Source: Mustelus asterias
Taxonomy: Eukaryota
Direction of reading: 5' to 3'
NCBI RefSeq assembly: GCF_964213995.1
Contig: NC_135830.1
Location: 14,818,001-14,882,000 of the forward strand
DNA: 64,000 bases
Positions 9,481 to 58,125 of this stretch are shown piece after piece. Under the pieces are notes generated by a model. It did no database searches, had not been told where the DNA came from, and saw only the letters and a list, made by a program, of their open reading frames with translations. The position numbers were made by a program, and so were the translations under genes. How positions within the stretch are numbered: the first letter of the stretch is position 1; each line of letters begins with the position of its first letter.

Positions 9481-9684
9481 GGCTCAATGGCATGAAAACC
9501 TCTCACTGAATTAAACACGAAACTGTTCGACTTCCAGCGGAATAGAGGCAATATTCACTCAGAAACCAGTAACTGTGAGGTTAACAAAACGGGATGGAGG
9601 AAGACACAGTTTGAGCGGTGACACTGCCGGAGGGATGGAGAGCTGGAGTTCACCCAGGAAAGCAGCAAAGTTTAACAACAATGG

Positions 9685-9757
9685 TGCCCCACGTGGGGCT
9701 CGAACCCAACGTTCTGAGATTAAAAGTCTCATGTCCTCCAGACTGAGCAAACAGGGC
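9685..9757 (-). tRNA. tRNA-Lys pseudogene (Lys-CTT body, TTT anticodon)
   Basis: Minus strand reads GCCCTGTTTGCTCAGTCTGGAGGACATGAGACTTTTAATCTCAGAACGTTGGGTTCGAGCCCCACGTGGGGCA, co-linear with vertebrate tRNA-Lys(CTT) but with stem mismatches. Confidence 0.85.
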
Positions 9758-13060: not shown

Positions 13061-13708
13061 ATTGTTTTTACAAAGTGTTTACCAATCCCCATAATAGCAG
13101 TATTCCATTAATACTTCCATTAAGCACTGGATGTTTATTATCGGCAGGATGCGAACCTGCCACCCGAGAACTCACTGGATCTTCTATGTTTACATATCAA
13201 CAGTCTCCGACGAGACGAACAAAAAATGCTGTTATTGACTTTATTACAAGTCACCATTATTAGGAAAAGGTTTCAATGAGCAAAAGTTACGCCTCAGATA
13301 AACCCCCATTGGCTACAATACTGCCACTGCGCAAAGCTAGTAATGGGTCCAGTGGCAGGTGCTGATCGACCACACCGAAACTCTTCACACTATTGGCGAG
13401 TAAAATTATTTGATTTCTGTACATTGTGCTTTCTTACCTGGGATTAACTGTATTAATGTTAAGTTATTTGCTGAGAAATTGAAACTTTTTTTATCAGCCA
13501 CAATTGCGGAAATGAGAAAGTGAGGATTCTGGGATGGGAATATGCTAATCTTACCTGTGAAACTTTGTGAAAGGAAATGATGTGTTGTTTGCAGGGAGCA
13601 TGTGTCAGAGCCTCCCCCCCCCCCCCCCCCCCCCCGACCGCCCCCCCACCGACCCGCCCCAGGTGATTGTTTAAACGATTGTGTTAACCTTACCCAACAA
13701 AACAAGCA

Positions 13709-40934: not shown

Positions 40935-42324
40935 TGGCTTTTGCTACCAAATAAACCTGTTGGACTTTAACCTGGTGTTGTTAAACTTCTTACTGTGAAC
41001 ACCACTAGTCACAGGCCTCCAGCCGGAAAAAGACCCTTCCACTACCACCCTCTGTCTTCTGTGACCAAGCCAGTTCTCCACCCATCTAGCCACCTCCCCC
41101 TTTATCCCATGAGATCCAACCTTTTTCACCAGCCTACCATGAGGGACTTTGTCAAATGCTTTACTAAAGTCCATATAGACGACATCCACGGCCCTTCCCT
41201 CGTCAACCATTCTAGTCACTTCTCCAAAAAGCTCCACCAGGTTAGTGAGGCATGACCTCCCTCTCACAAAACCATGCTGACTATCGTTAATGAGTTTATT
41301 CCTTTCTAAATGCGCATACATCCTATCTCTAAGAATATTCTCCAACAACTTCCCCACCATGGACGTCAAGCTCACCGGCCTATAATTACCCGGGTTATCC
41401 TTCCTACCCTTCTTAAATAACGGGACCACATTAGCTATCCTCCAATCCTCTGGGACCTCACCTGCGTCCAGTGACGAGACAAAGATTTGTGTCAGAGGCC
41501 CAGCGAATTCATCTCTCATCTCCCTGAGCAGCCTCGGATAGATTCCATCAGGCCCTGGGGATTTGTCAGTCTTTATATTCTCTAACAAACCTAGAACTTC
41601 CTCCCTTGTAATGGAGATTTTCTCCAACAGTTCAACACTCCCCTCCGAGACACTCCTAGTCAACACATCCCTCTCCTTTGTGAATACCGACGCAAAGTAT
41701 TCATTTAGGATCTCCCCTACTTCTTTGGGCTCCAAGCATAATTCCCCACTTTTGTCCCTGAGAGGTCAACAACTTCATTCACATCTTGCACTTCTTAGCT
41801 TTACCTCCTTTTAAACATTGCAAACTCCTCTTACATCTTTTGCCTTAATATTTGTGATCGAAATACTCAAACAGATGTGGAAACAGCGTCTCAGTATGCC
41901 CAAAGTCAAACTATCGCCCCATTTTCAGACTTTTCCATCTGACCACCTCTCATCCCAAAATCATCTCACTGAGTCTCTCCTCCCCGCACAACTGCCTCGT
42001 CACAGGATTAAACCCAGTGAACGTTGTTTAAACATAGAAAGCGAGAGAATAGAGGGTGCAAAGAGCAAAAGAGGGAACAGTGTTCGATGCACAGACAGAG
42101 AGACTGAAAATTGAAAGAGTCAGAGACAGGTCTCCAGTGACAAAAAGAGACAGACAGGGAAAGAGAGTGAAGCAATCACCCACAACTCAATTTCCACAAA
42201 ACAACTCTCGGAACCCACAAGCATGGGGTCCTCTGAATGGGTGAATAAGGATTAAATGAATGTCTGCAAGCATTGTCACCTTTTGAAAATGTCTGGATCC
42301 TCTGTGCGTGTGTTGTGCGAATAT

Positions 42325-42682
42325 AATTTGATTTGTTTTATTGTCACATGTATTAACATACAGTGAAAAGTATTGTTTCTTGCGTGCTATACAGACAAAA
42401 CATACAATTCATGCACCAGGAAACGAGAGAGTGCAGAATGTAGTGTTACAGTCATAGTTAGGGTGTAGATAAAGATCAACTTAATGTAAGGTAACTCCAT
42501 TCAGAAGTCTGACAGCAGCAGGGAAGAAGCTGTTCTTGAGTCGGTTGGTACGTGACCTCAGACTTTCTGTATCTTTTCCGGATGGAAGAAGGTGGAAGAG
42601 AGAATGTCGCGGTGCGTGGGATCCTTAATTACGCTGGCTGCTTTGCCGAGACAGCGGGAAGTGTAGACAGAGTCAATGGGAA
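42325..42682 (-). mobile_element. Rex1/Babar-type LINE 3' end
   Basis: Homologous to about 3066-3430 (tttgatttg..ttattgtcacatg, gaagaagctgttcttgagtcgg). Confidence 0.8.
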
Positions 42683-42790
42683 GCCTTTCAGTGTGTTCTC
42701 AGGTTCTCAAATCATGCGCCATGTGACCCAATTCCGCCACGTCACGGGAAATAAACTAACAAAATCCACGACTTGTCCACTACAAAGCAA

Positions 42791-42880
42791 GGGGTTGTCC
42801 GGGATTTAAACCAGGGACCTCTCCCAAGCCTGCGGATTTTAACACCCAAAGCGAGAATGATACCCATCGACCAACAGACC
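42791..42880 (-). tRNA. tRNA-Pro(TGG) with an 18 nt intron-like insertion at 37/38 (degenerate)
   Basis: Minus strand: GGTCTGTTGGTCGATGGGTATCATTCTCGC TT TGG G [TGTTAAAATCCGCAGGCT] T GGGAGAGGTCCCTGGTTTAAATCCCGGACAACCCC, i.e. a 72 nt Pro body plus 18 nt. Confidence 0.85.
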
Positions 42881-43319
42881 ATCGTTAAAAAAGCATGTCA
42901 ACTAAATATATTTTCATTCCCATCTAACAGCGGATCAGAAATTTGCAATGAAACGTGATAATGTTGGAAAAACTCAGGAAGTCAGACAGCGTCTGTGCAT
43001 AGGGAAACAAAAGATAAACTTTTGTTTCCCCATGACCTTTCGTTAACATTGGGAATGTTTAGAAATGTAGGACTTTTCAAAGAAGTGAAATCCAGCAGGG
43101 AGGAAACATAACAACCTCTGATATGGTGGAAGCCAGGGGAAAATAAATGAGGGAAACAGAGAATGACAGAATGATTACACCACAGAATGAGACGATTACA
43201 AATTTACTTGCAGGACTCACATGCGTTGTGGGTGAAGGGGGACTAGAGGGCGTACTGTTCATATATTTCAACAAAACCGTAGTGATGAGGTTGGTGGGCT
43301 TGAAAATTGAACGCTCTAC

Positions 43320-43800
43320 ATAGAAACATAGGAACATAGGAATTGGGAGCGGATGTCGGCAAATTCAGCCCTGTGGTCCTGCTCAACATAGGAACATAGG
43401 AATTGGGAGCAGATGTCGGCAAATTCAGCCCTGTGGTCCTGCTCTGCCATTCAATCAGATCATGGTTGACCTCTCCTTGATCTGAAATCCACCTCCCCAC
43501 CTATTCTCCATATCCCTTTAATGTGTTTTTCTTCATCAGAAATATTTATATCCCTTCTTGAAATCATTCAACAATTCAGATTCCAACGCGCTATGGAGCA
43601 GCGAGTTCCACCAATTCACCACTCTTTACGAGAAGTAGTTTCTCCTCACCTCAGTTTTAAATCCACGGGCTCTCAAACTATACACGTGAGCTCTTGTCCT
43701 TGATTGCCCCATAAGAAGAAACTTTTGGTCTACCTTTTCTTTATCAATCCATTTCGAATTTTATATACCTCTATCAGATTCCCTCCTCATCCTTCTAAAC
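43320..43800 (-). mobile_element. Old CR1 3' fragment with a 60 bp tandem duplication in the tail
   Basis: aacataggaacataggaattgggagc.gatgtcggcaaattcagccctgtggtcctgctc occurs twice at about 43325-43444. Confidence 0.65.
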
Positions 43801-44011
43801 TTCAGCATTTTGTGGGACCATTTCACCTCACTGTCAATTCCATGAACCAGCGAATTCAATCCATGTTGTCATTGGCTGAAGGAGGCAATAATGTTCCATC
43901 CAAACAGGACATTTTGAAGGAGAAACGTGTCACAAGTGAAAAAGATCTGAGAGGAAAATAATGAGCAAAGGGACATGTGTTAAGTCAGTTTGAAAAACAC
44001 AGTTCACCGGT

Positions 44012-44082
44012 TTCCGTGGTAGTCCAGTGGCTTGTGTTCAGCACTCTCCCTGTGATGTCTGGTTTCAATTCCCGCTTTGGAA
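44012..44082 (+). pseudogene. tRNA-Glu remnant
   Basis: tccgtggtagtccagtggct..ttcagcactctc..ggtttcaattcccg; upstream flank is homologous to 29070-29210. Confidence 0.55.
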
Positions 44083-44793
44083 AAGAGGACTATTTGCTCT
44101 CAGTAAACCATTAATAATGATCTGATTTGCTCTCTGATCGAAAGCAGATCTACTAGAATCAGCCGAGTGAGGTTTGCAAGTTTATATCAGAGCTGGAAAT
44201 TTCACATGTGCAACAGTTCAAGAACAAACACAAAAGGAGAAGGACAGTGATAGGGTGCAAAGTACGAACGATTGAGCCGTTGTTGCAAGGTAAAATCTGT
44301 TTGGTAATTAGTCAGATTTTACCGTTTACACTGACACTGAATTATGAAACTTTTTCCCGCACTCTGCATTGAAAAGCATTTGGAAATATTTCTGTCCGGT
44401 TTCGAACCGTTAAAAGCGCAAGTGATAATTGCACTGGAGGGTTTGTTACATGTTGTGATTGGCTGAACACATCACTGGTGTTGAAACAGAAGGCGCCATT
44501 TTGCAGGAGAAAGCTGTTTGTGGCGAAAGTGGCGTGAAAATTAAAGTAACAAAAGCAGTGGGGATAAATTAAATTATAAAACACGCTGTAAGCTGCTGGT
44601 CTGGTGGTTAGAGTTTGACTCTTTCCCTGCTAAATAAAGGTCAAAAATATTCAGCATTTCTTATTTTAAAGAAAGCACTGAGGCCGAGGTAAGAGCAAAG
44701 TTAATATGGCTGTAACATCGAGATTCGTATAAAGTTGAGCAACAAGATGAAATCATGCAGATTTCCCTCACCTGCAGGAGAAAGCTTAATGAA

Positions 44794-44866
44794 CGTTTCC
44801 GCCCGGTTCCGGACCGGGGAATTTTCGCGTATGAAGCGAACGTGATAACCACTGCACTGCAGAAAC
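44794..44866 (-). tRNA. tRNA-Val-derived pseudogene with CAT anticodon
   Basis: GTTTCTGCAGTGCAGTGGTTATCACGTTCGC TT CAT AC GCGAAAATTCCCCGGTCCGGAACCGGGCGGAAACG; B box damaged. Confidence 0.85.
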
Positions 44867-45892
44867 AATTGACAGCATAGTACCGCCAATTTGCCTGACT
44901 ACAATGATCAACTCCACTATGTTGCTGCAAGTACTAATGGTTAGGTTGAGGGACCAAGTCACTTAATATAAGATCACATCCGGTACTTTCAACTTGACAT
45001 CTCAACTTATCTTGTACTTCAAAATTAAAAAGCTTTCTTCTGGCAAATGTCTAAGCAAGCAATGATTTCTGCTACATTAAGGCATCATTCTCATCTTCCG
45101 TCGAATAATTTCAACCAATTGTTCTCAGTAATTGTTCGTTATTCAATATTTAATGTCAATACGTTATTTAACACACATGTCCTCATTATGAATTGAATAT
45201 CTCTGAAATTGAATATCACTGAATTGCAAACATAATTGGCCAACAGACGATATCGAGTCACCGGGTAATATAGATCCCATGGTGTTTATTTGAGATTGAT
45301 CGCAGTCAGCTTTTAAACAAAGTCAACTATTTTCAAATGGAAGCGACTGAAGAAGTATCTGCTGGTTATATTCGAGCCGTTTTTATTCTGGGTGTGAAAC
45401 ATTCAGGCGCGTAAATTCCGGCCATCTATAGAAAAGTCCCCTAAATCTGCACTGAGACTCAATTTCCTCATCTGTCTGAGTAGTTTTTCCTTTTTATTTG
45501 TTATGAAGAACGATTTTTAAAAAGGTTCTTCTGGAAAATGTGCGCAAGATCCCCTAGTTCTGTTACAGTATCATTAGTTTTTGCCTTTTTGAGCACATAC
45601 TACTATTCGAAATGTTTCAGATGGTGAATAACGATGTTTGTCTGCGCAGATAACCCAATTATCTTTCGTGTAGACAGAACGAGGTGCCAATATGTGCACG
45701 TTGTCAAAATAGAAACGCTTCCTTCCCATCAGTGCGTCAAAAATAAACCAACATCTCTGATTTTACAGAATGCATTTGAGGCCGATGTCAGAGCAAAGAT
45801 AAAGTGGCTGCAACATGGAGATTCAGAAAACGTTCAGCAACGAACTGAAATCAGATAGATTTCCCTCACTCTTCATGAGAAAGCTCAGTAAA

Positions 45893-46350: not shown

Positions 46351-47437
46351 CGAATGGTTAGACTGAGAGCCCCGAACCCCCATGTCACTTAATTCAGGAA
46401 GAAAACTGTTAATTTTAATCTGATTGCTCAACTTATCTTCAACTTCAAAATTTAAAAGTGTTCGTCTGGCAAATATGTAAGGGGCAACGATTTCTGCTCG
46501 TTCATTAATGCAACATTCTCATCTTCCTTCGAGTAATCTCAACCAATGGTACTTCGTCATAAATCCAAATTACTGCGGATGCTGTAATTTGAAACCAAAA
46601 GAGAAAATGCTGGAAAATCTCAGCCGGTCTGGCAGCATCTGTAAGGAGAGAAAAGGGCTGACGTTCCGAGGTTAGATGGCACTTTGTCAAAGTTCATTGT
46701 GCAATTGTACTCAGTATTTGTTTCAATATTTAATATCAATGCATTATTTAACACATACGTCTTCATTATGAATTGAATATCTCTGGAATTGAACATCACA
46801 AATTGCAAACGTAAGTGGCCAACAAAAGGAATCGTGTAATACAGATCGCAATTTTGAGATTGACCATAGTCAGCTTTTAAACAAATTCAACCACATTTAA
46901 ATGGGAGAGATTGAAAAGATATCTGTTTGTTACACTTGAACCTTTTTATTATGGGCGTGAAACATTCAGCTGCATGAATTCCGGCCATCTTTAGGAAAGT
47001 CCAATAGATCCACACTGAGTCTCGATTTCCTCATCTGTCTGAGTCTTTTTTTCCTCTTTCTTTGTTATGAAGAACGATTTTTAAAAAAGATTCTTCTGGG
47101 AGATGTGCGCCATTTCCAATAGTTCACTTACAGTATCACCTGTGTCTGTCTTTTTTGACATACAATATCAGGCATGTTTCAGATGGTGATTAACTATGTT
47201 AGTCTGCACGGCGCAATCCATTAAATTCTTTTCTGGACGGAACGAGTTGCGAATATGTGGACAAACAACAGAAACATTTTTTTTCTCCGGCCTAAAATAC
47301 TGCATTTCTGATTTTCCCAAACGCATTTGACGCCGAGGTCAAAGTCGGCATGAACGTAACATAGGATTCTCATGATGTTGAACAATGACATTAGATCATG
47401 CAGGCTTCGCTCAGGCTTGATGAGAAAGATCCAACAG

Positions 47438-47510
47438 TGTTTCTGCCCGGTTTCGGACCAGGCAACTTCCGCGTGTGAGGCGAACGTGGTAACCACTACA
47501 TTACAGAAAC
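47438..47510 (-). tRNA. tRNA-Val(CAC) pseudogene
   Basis: Plus strand tgtttctgcccggtttcggacc..cgcgtgtgaggcgaacgtggtaaccactacattacagaaac. Confidence 0.85.
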
Positions 47511-50804: not shown

Positions 50805-51080
50805 AATGTACAATGTACTTACAATGTACTCTATTGTAACTTACAATGGACTCGATTGTTACATACAATGGACTCTATGGTAACTTACAACAGAGTCCAT
50901 TGTAAGTTACAATGGAGTCCATTGTCAGTTACCATAGAGTGCATTGTAAGTTTCCATCGAGTCCATTGTAAGTTACAATAGAGCACATTGTAAGTTACAA
51001 TAGAGTACATGGTAAGTTACAACAGAGTCCATAGTAAGTTACCAAATAGTCCATTATAAGTTACAATAGAGTCCATTGTG
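50805..51080. repeat. Palindromic 22 bp minisatellite with an orientation switch
   Basis: Unit gagtccattgtaagttacaata; the first copies are the reverse complement (ttgtaacttacaatggactc). Confidence 0.85.
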
Positions 51081-56409: not shown

Positions 56410-58125
56410 AAGTGAGGGGGGCTGGTGCGGGAGTGAGGGGGGCTGGTGCGGGAGTGAGGGGGGCTGGTGCGGGAGTGAGGGGGGCTGGTGGGGATTGGTG
56501 GAAGGGTGGGGGCCGTTGGGGTGGATGGGGTGTGGGTTGAGGGGGCGTGGGGGGAGGGGGTGCGGGAGTCGGAGGGGGAGGGGGTGTGGGGGTCATTGGG
56601 GGAGGGGGTGTGGGGGTCATTGGGGGAGGGTGGGAGGGGGTGGGGGGCGGGGTGGGCTGGGGGGTGGGAGGGGGAGGAGGGGGTTGGGGTGTGGGGGTCA
56701 TTGTGGGGACGGGTGGGAGGGAATGGGGGTGGGGGTTGTTGTGGGGATGGGTGGGTGGGAGGGAGTGGGGGTGGGGGTTGTTGGGGCGGCTGGGGTGGGA
56801 TGGAGGGGTGAGTGGGTGGGGAGGAGGGGGCAGTTGGGGGGGACATGTCGTCGGGGGGAGGTGGGTGGTGGTCGTTGGGGGGGGAGGTGGCGTGGGGGTC
56901 GTTGGGGGGGTGGGGACCATTGGGGGGGTGGGGACGGTTGGAGGGGAGTGGACGTGGGGGCGGTTGGGGAGGAGGGGGCGGGTGGGAGCGTGGGGGCAGT
57001 TGGGGGGGAGGTGTGGTTGTGGAAGAGTGGACGTGGGGGCGGTTGGGGGAGAGGGGGCATGGGGCGGTTGGGGGAGGGGGCGGGTGGGAGCGTGGGGACG
57101 TTTGGGGGAGAGGGGGGAGGGGGCGGGTCGGGGGGAAGGGGGTGTGGGGGGCGGTTGGGGGAGAGGGCTGTGGGGGGGTGGTTGGGGGGGAGGGGGTGTG
57201 GGGGGAGGGGGCGGTTGGGGCATTGAGGGTGGTTGTGGGGAGGGGGCGGTTGGGGGGGAGGGGGCGGTTGTGGAAGAGTGGCCGTGGGGGCGGTTGGGGG
57301 GGAGGGGGCATGGGGCGGTTGGGGGGTGGGGGCGGTTGGGGGGAGGGGGCGGGTGGGAGCGTTGGGGGGGTGGGGGTAGTTGGGGAGAGGGGGGGTGGGG
57401 GCGGTTGGGGGGAGGGGGTGGTGGGGGCATTTGGGGGGAGGGGGCGGGTGGGGGGGAAGGGGGTGTGGGGGCGGTTGGGGGCAGTGAGGGTGGTTGTAGG
57501 GAGGGGGCGGTTGGGGGGAGGGGGCACGAGGGTTAGGGTGTGTTTGGGGGTAGGGGACCTGGTGGCAGTTGGGGGGGAGGGAGCGTGGGGGCGGTGGTTT
57601 GGAGGGGGCGGTTGGGGGGAAGGGGACATGGGGGCGGTTGGGGGGGGAGGAGGCGGTTCGAGGGGAGGGGCGGTTGGGGTGGAGGGGCGGGGGGGTTCGT
57701 GGTGGGGGTTGTTGGGGGGAGGGGGTGAGGGTTGGTTGAGGGGGAGGGTTCGGTGTGGGGGGAGTGGGCGTGGGGGGGGTGTAGGTTGGGTGGGGGAGGG
57801 GGTGTGGGGTTGGTTTGGGGGAGGGGCATGAAGGTGGGGAGTAGGGGGAAGCTGGGGTGATGTCGGGAGGGGAGTGGGGTGAGGTTGAGAAAGAGAAGCG
57901 AGGTTGGGGGTGGGTGTTGGGTTGTGAGAGGGGTGGGTGTAAGGGGGAGGGAAGGGTTGAGAGGGGGTGGGGACAGCAGTGGGGGTGAGGGGAGGGGTTT
58001 GGGAGAGGTGTTGGGGAAGCGGAGAGGGAGCTTTTGGGGTGGGGAGGGAAGTGGTATAGGGTTTTGGGGAGGGAGATGGGGTCGGAGTTAGTGATAGTGC
58101 TGGGGGAGGGCGGGTGAGGGGAGAG
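56410..58125 (+). repeat. 1.7 kb G-rich low-complexity tract starting with a 21 bp tandem repeat
   Basis: Dense G3-G8 runs; the agtgaggggggctggtgcggg-type unit occurs about four times at 56410-56490; recurrent gggggcggttggggg. Confidence 0.9.

Follow-up and report, generated by a model that had tools for sequence, protein, structure and literature searches.

Intron-like inserts in proline tRNA genes of a shark: a damaged tRNA-Pro(TGG) copy and the large family to which it belongs

The window analysed here (the whole stretch of 64,000 nucleotides, situated on contig C71 of a 3.68 Gb genome) contains, on the reverse strand at 42791-42880, a tRNA-Pro(TGG) copy in which 18 nt stand after G37 (Table 1). 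The copy consists of 36 + 18 + 36 nt, the 18 nt being those that the preliminary description had pointed out. Its exons can be aligned gap-free with L063, an intronless Pro-TGG gene from the same genome, and 11 of the 72 nt differ, including T13G, G15T, G51T and C56T. The insertion point can slide by 0-2 nt toward the 3' side, and the third-last base of the insert is a G opposite T32, as described before. The damage to stems and B box is equally borne out: besides the C56T change, the copy keeps 5 of 7 base pairs in the acceptor stem, 4 of 5 in the anticodon stem and 4 of 5 in the T stem. It is missed by ARAGORN with default settings and by Rfam (which gives no score); ARAGORN in intron mode with a relaxed score detects it, but as Gln, and its free folding is uninformative (z 0.36).

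The window sits inside a small-RNA gene cluster, the other copies being tRNAs (Lys, two Glu, Gln and two Val-like, several of them with mismatched stems) and one U4 snRNA. It also holds two repeat regions, one a 12-copy tandem repeat with a 22-nt unit and the other a long G-rich tract.

Table 1. Location of the features discussed in the text (positions without a contig are those of the window).
Feature	Position	Strand	Basis
5' exon, tRNA-Pro(TGG) positions 1-37, 36 nt	42845..42880	-	sequence alignment
Anticodon of the window copy	42848-42846	-	
A box of the window copy, carrying T13G and G15T	~42873-42863	-	
18-nt intron-type insert, site 37/38	42827..42844	-	alignment
Insert bases -3 to -6, able to pair with 32-35 (G-U, G-U, A-U, C-G)	42829-42832	-	
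3' exon, positions 38-73, 36 nt	42791..42826	-	alignment
B box of the window copy, C56T common to all 18 subfamily copies	~42812-42802	-	
Nearest downstream run of four T, 26 nt beyond the window gene	42761..42764	-	
Duplicated DNA segment holding the damaged gene	41766..44463	.	93-96% identity to segments around other copies tested
Other small-RNA copies in the window	9682-9757, 29265-29338, 31544-31616, 35140-35211, 44793-44867, 47437-47510, 13204-13338		
22-nt tandem repeat	50817-51079		
G-rich repeat tract	56411-57826		
Head-to-head Pro-AGG genes L034 and L035	G000:C19:64524696-64526512		
Inverted duplicate L140	G000:C3:136697304-136697385	-	
Arg-TCG insert genes L180-L199	G000 C85, C102, C103, C130, C141, C155, C2, C72, C75		
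Tyr-GTA intron-bearing tandem array	G000:C7:40238218-40356618		
Arg-TCT-like gene with anticodon TCA	G000:C85:833412-833483	-	

The window copy is a pseudogene and belongs to a set of 18 copies, all damaged and duplicated. Judged as a functional gene, it has damaged A and B boxes, damaged stems and exons that are not more conserved than the flanks. Its 18 best matches all carry C5T, G15T, G51T, C56T and G68A, and they sit in duplicated segments that are 93-96% identical across ~2.7 kb where tested. Among the 18 subfamily copies the exons have diverged by 6.3% and the flanks by 5.0%, so nothing protects the exons of this subfamily; several pairs of copies are identical across the aligned stretch, and some may therefore be assembly duplicates. 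The window gene is a decayed, duplicated member of a large insert-bearing Pro family. Its subfamily lost C56 and other conserved bases first and then spread by segmental duplication, and because of this early loss the copy is likely silent or non-functional. Its ancestor, on the other hand, was likely transcribed, as judged from a dispersed relative (L019) that retains the trailer of the window lineage up to the T run and in which C56 is still present. Since the 30 nt of trailer kept by this relative pass directly into SINE sequence, the run of four T downstream of the window gene likely served the ancestral gene as terminator.

The extent of the family was mapped by searching the whole genome for an exact motif that runs from the anticodon stem across a gap to the T arm. 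This motif has 143 matches with a gap of 8-30 nt vs 9 with a gap of 0-7 nt, and the reversed control motif with the 8-30 nt gap has no match in the genome, so the insert is not due to chance. The preliminary description had supposed that this lineage may have an intron-containing Pro-TGG family; the 143 insert-bearing matches uphold this and make the family wider than claimed, with AGG and CGG anticodons included (49 TGG, 39 AGG and 12 CGG among the 100 listed of the 143, tallied by eye). Among the 100 listed insert-bearing matches (143 in total), 44 lie on C71, C85 or larger contigs, and the excess of inserts therefore holds even if every smaller contig is redundant. The nine intronless matches (five TGG, three AGG, one CGG) are found on C3, C4, C10 and C17, and a similarity search adds several further intronless copies, which are decayed.

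The loci fetched for closer comparison, a non-random set (25 chosen for distinct intron sequence and 30 from a search with the damaged copy), contain 87 Pro genes, of which 77 carry inserts of 11-18 nt and 10 carry none. The absence of any intact Pro-TGG gene with a 37/38 insert, which the preliminary description had named as the sign of a one-off indel, is not what we find: in these loci, 25 of the 77 insert-bearing genes are perfect at all 71 non-wobble exon positions relative to the intronless gene, and 51 of the 77 have at most two exon differences. ARAGORN in intron mode reports Pro with an intron in five 10-kb stretches and a pair in a sixth. Without intron mode it calls the insert-bearing Pro genes of L023-L060 Gln, Lys, Arg or unknown, or calls nothing, which matters for annotation, where tools lacking this mode will mislabel or miss such genes. 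The head-to-head Pro-AGG genes L034 and L035, on a large contig, have different 18-nt inserts and a T run 2-3 nt downstream of each gene, and are candidates for old single-copy intron genes.

The position and pairing of the inserts were analysed in 45 distinct near-intact intron types. All 45 can be placed after G37, and 14 are unable to slide and lie exactly there. Pairing between loop bases 32-35 and intron bases -3 to -6 is seen at 168 of 180 positions, vs a mean of 85 in shuffled introns (0 of 10000 shuffles reach 168), although the 45 types form five single-linkage clusters, so that the shuffle figure overstates independence and the helix evidence rests on few lineage events. The register is specific, with a mean of 3.73 of 4 pairs here vs at most 2.18 in eight other registers. 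U32 stands opposite A or G in 40 of the 45 types (U-A in 22, U-G in 18), and the five with a U-U proximal pair are one CGG family in which bases 33-36 are paired. The partner of the wobble base tracks the anticodon: 16 of the 21 TGG types have A there, 16 of the 17 AGG types have T, and 4 of the 7 CGG types have G. The family has the hallmarks by which tRNA introns are recognised: site 37/38, an intact cloverleaf on removal, a 32/-3 pair and a predicted bulge-helix-loop. The pairing agrees with the rule described for eukaryotes, in which C32 or U32 pairs with the third-last intron base and the pairing is extended into the anticodon loop (PMC10275265, available text). In the fly, however, the proximal pair is C-G in all 16 intron tRNAs, and in a reporter a U-G pair gave almost no product and a U-A pair a reduced one (PMC6614914, available text); this result counts against splicing of the Pro genes, because their types mostly have U-G or U-A.

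A similar arrangement is found in Arg-TCG genes, where a tally made by eye among 100 listed of 118 matches gives 61 full-length genes with inserts of 16-20 nt at 37/38 vs two intronless ones. All 19 fetched Arg-TCG types have C32-G(-3), and their helix is paired at 53 of 76 positions vs 33 in shuffles, with a register 3 nt away scoring equally.

Several comparisons show that the exons of the Pro insert genes are under constraint. Mismatch is 3.0% at the 40 exon positions outside the motif (27 of the first 30 matches, three having been left out for 3' deletions), and nine representatives, selected for near-perfect exons, show 0-2 exon base differences with most of their flank pairs at shuffled background. 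In a filtered set of seven near-intact sister copies the exons differ by 0.8%, the upstream DNA by 7.5% and the introns by 9.5%, and the overall divergence is 1.8% for exons vs 52% for introns, a contrast inflated by the filtering. A perfect cloverleaf of this kind would presumably be useful as a tRNA only after removal of the insert. Four T within 25 nt follow 28 of 51 near-intact insert genes vs 8 of 10 intronless genes, and looser terminator patterns follow 45 of 51 vs 9 of 10. Within a family, the cluster copies share their whole flanks (the best extension has a median of 300 of 300 nt), and between families they mostly share none. An identity as tRNA-derived SINEs was rejected, there being no shared tail and the flanks being unrelated between families; the Helenus tRNA-derived elements, as far as the accessible part of PMC10886601 describes them, are not a match either.

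Probable traces of transcription are preserved in dispersed copies. Five insert-bearing copies on large contigs (L019, L031, L032, L033 and L036) match the cluster genes for 6-10 nt upstream and 2-30 nt downstream and then run into SINE or LINE sequence, unlike the cluster genes, which match one another across the full 300 nt tested; these five look like copies of unspliced precursors. A sixth locus, L061, is intronless, with a leader of ~4 nt, a 43-nt trailer that corresponds to the one of intron family B with 5-7 differences in 41 nt, and a junction to a LINE reverse-transcriptase fragment on the same strand. It is likely, from this single locus, a retrocopy of a spliced but untrimmed precursor. 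Convincing target-site duplications were not seen at the dispersed copies (the best are 8-9 nt), and none is clear at L061. The nearest known parallels are chimeras of small RNAs and LINEs formed by template switching, and retropseudogenes of pre-tRNAs (PMC4476161, available text). The chimeras resemble L061 in having the small RNA 5' of a 5'-truncated LINE on the same strand; they are, however, mainly of U6, from mammals and usually with target-site duplications. L061 is accompanied by a 352-nt inverted duplicate of its 3' exon, trailer and LINE (L140, 96% identity), whose start coincides with base 1 of the 3' exon and lies ~320 nt upstream of L061, and a 15-bp hairpin adjoins the 5' end of L061.

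Sequencing runs were compared with a flank next to an intact gene. The one raw RNA run (X24) has 0 reads there, a count that says nothing on the intron, and the unique part of the same flank is covered by a few contigs in two of three contig runs (X1, X6), which are likewise silent on the intron. In a search of sequencing runs the shares were small, the highest being 0.22 of 27 words, which speaks neither for nor against. Reads of mature tRNA could not decide on splicing, because the intronless genes yield the same molecule as splicing would.

Based on position, helix and exon constraint, we consider it very probable (about 0.85) that the Pro inserts of 11-18 nt at 37/38 are, throughout the family, ordinary TSEN-type tRNA introns. 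In this mechanism, the A and B boxes inside the insert-bearing genes would direct transcription by RNA polymerase III, as in established tRNA biology, and the anticodon-intron helix would leave 3 nt bulged out at the 3' splice site. TSEN would then dock on the tRNA body and cut both sites (as is established; PMC10485636 and PMC10275265, available text), and RTCB would join the halves, yielding the same tRNA as the few intronless genes. The Pro inserts would in that case form the extra class of TSEN substrates envisaged in the preliminary description. The putative retrocopies point indirectly to transcription and to one splicing event, and splicing may be dispensable, since intronless genes exist for all three anticodons.

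An unlikely alternative grants that the inserts derive from introns but supposes that the majority of the cluster genes are silent or inefficiently spliced, that about nine intronless genes supply tRNA-Pro and that the clusters persist through segmental duplication. The weak proximal pair in most types, the weaker terminators of the insert genes and the large number of decayed copies (the window subfamily with its 18 copies among them, as well as the three of the first 30 matches that have 3' deletions) would all be expected from it, as would RNA-derived copies of which five are unspliced vs one spliced. It is harder to reconcile with exons, stems included, that are identical across families with unrelated flanks and introns, or with the gradient from exons to upstream DNA and introns in the filtered set of seven sisters; moreover, U32 with A or G fits the described rule (PMC10275265, available text).

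The remaining alternatives have very little probability. A chance indel in a pseudogene or in a tRNA-derived mobile element, later amplified and never spliced, would describe the window subfamily well, its 18 copies being pseudogenes in duplicated segments, and tRNA-like SINEs with a long spacing from A to B box are abundant in the genome. Nevertheless, the inserts of the family form at least five clusters, 13-18 nt in length, every one of them at 37/38 and with a helix pairing that tracks the anticodon; there is no common tail, the family flanks are unrelated, and the L034/L035 pair combines a large contig, two different inserts and good terminators. The chance-indel reading is in fact largely refuted by the intact genes, and we regard it as very improbable. 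Even less credit is given to gene conversion with intronless genes, which could keep exons alike and would make L061 the descendant of a converted, intronless family-B gene. Conversion among tRNA genes has been described (PMC4090602, available text), but here it would need to reach both 36-nt exons while leaving the insert untouched, and this in many families located on different contigs, and the helix would stay unexplained; besides, apart from L061 and its local inverted duplicate, no intronless gene with a family-B trailer was found among the 40 candidates scored, of 435 in all.

For tRNA introns as the preferred reading, the mechanism itself is already known, and what is unexpected is likely the occurrence of a canonical tRNA intron in Pro (and Arg-TCG) types. 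Fungal tRNA-Pro genes with introns are known, for example Pro-UGG of budding yeast, and they resemble the shark Pro family in isotype and position. Yeast families are, however, wholly intron-bearing with near-identical introns (PMC10275265, available text), whereas here the introns are diverse and intronless genes coexist. Metazoan introns are stated to be prevalent in Tyr-GUA, Ile-UAU, Leu-CAA and Arg-UCU and essentially absent elsewhere (PMC12530127, with the underlying survey in PMC12168002; available text of both). These animal TSEN families (PMC12530127, PMC12168002 and PMC10275265, as far as available) are like the Pro genes in their short and varied introns at 37/38, in the pair of base 32 with the third-last base and in also having intronless members, and differ in belonging to the four usual isotypes instead of Pro, with three anticodons, and Arg-TCG. 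The Pro introns would accordingly be a clear exception to the stated four-type rule of animal tRNA splicing.

Our literature search, with most subscription journals outside its reach, found no report of vertebrate Pro introns, and such an intron is not named in the available text of PMC4090602, PMC8450103, PMC11408192, PMC4033280, PMC13578239 and PMC4536317. Expanded intron-containing tRNA loci of sharks are described in a preprint (bioRxiv 10.1101/2025.06.08.657570), whose available text does not name the isotype, and UCG, AGG, UGG and CGG are among the first 14 of 45 anticodons on the axis of a eukaryote-wide figure (PMC12168002, axis labels alone). Annotations of shark genomes of the tRNAscan type probably already contain these genes. 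As to intronic circles, none were detected for fly introns below 21 nt (PMC4536317, available text), and the Pro inserts lie below this length.

If the Pro inserts are spliced, one mature tRNA would come from both intron-bearing and intronless genes, with an intron that tracks the anticodon by compensating changes. This would offer a natural test of the gain and retention of tRNA introns, of the tolerance of TSEN for U-A and U-G pairs and of the effect of introns on modification and supply. A tentative and rather doubtful extension is that the shark-type lineage gained introns in Pro-AGG, Pro-CGG, Pro-TGG and Arg-TCG, types left unspliced in other animals, and that the clusters represent a second, separately controlled, TSEN-gated supply (in the egg or germ line, for instance) alongside a small set of intronless housekeeping genes.

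The other isotypes were surveyed with A-box and B-box motifs, and these surveys show that intron-bearing Tyr-GUA, Ile-UAU, Leu-CAA and Arg-UCU are all present in the genome. One survey yields Tyr genes and SINEs among 100 listed of 124 matches, and a second yields Arg-TCT, Ile-TAT, their anticodon variants and SINEs among 100 listed of 143. In the Val/Asp/His class no intron family appears among 100 listed of 103, which are SINEs and one rearranged Val, and two further surveys (of classes including Gln, Gly, Leu and Ser) are dominated by a SINE among 100 listed of 2030 and 100 of 1231. The SINE-like family is dispersed and abundant genome-wide, with a spacing between A and B boxes ~15-20 nt above that of a tRNA. 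The Tyr-GTA genes with introns form a tandem array of at least 76 matches with a period of ~1445 nt. Finally, the anticodon TCA (of the stop codon UGA) is found in Arg-TCT-like intron genes, the one given in Table 1 and seven further matches on C85 and C103 (eight among the 100 listed of 143); their anticodon stem is damaged, and they are probably duplicated pseudogenes.
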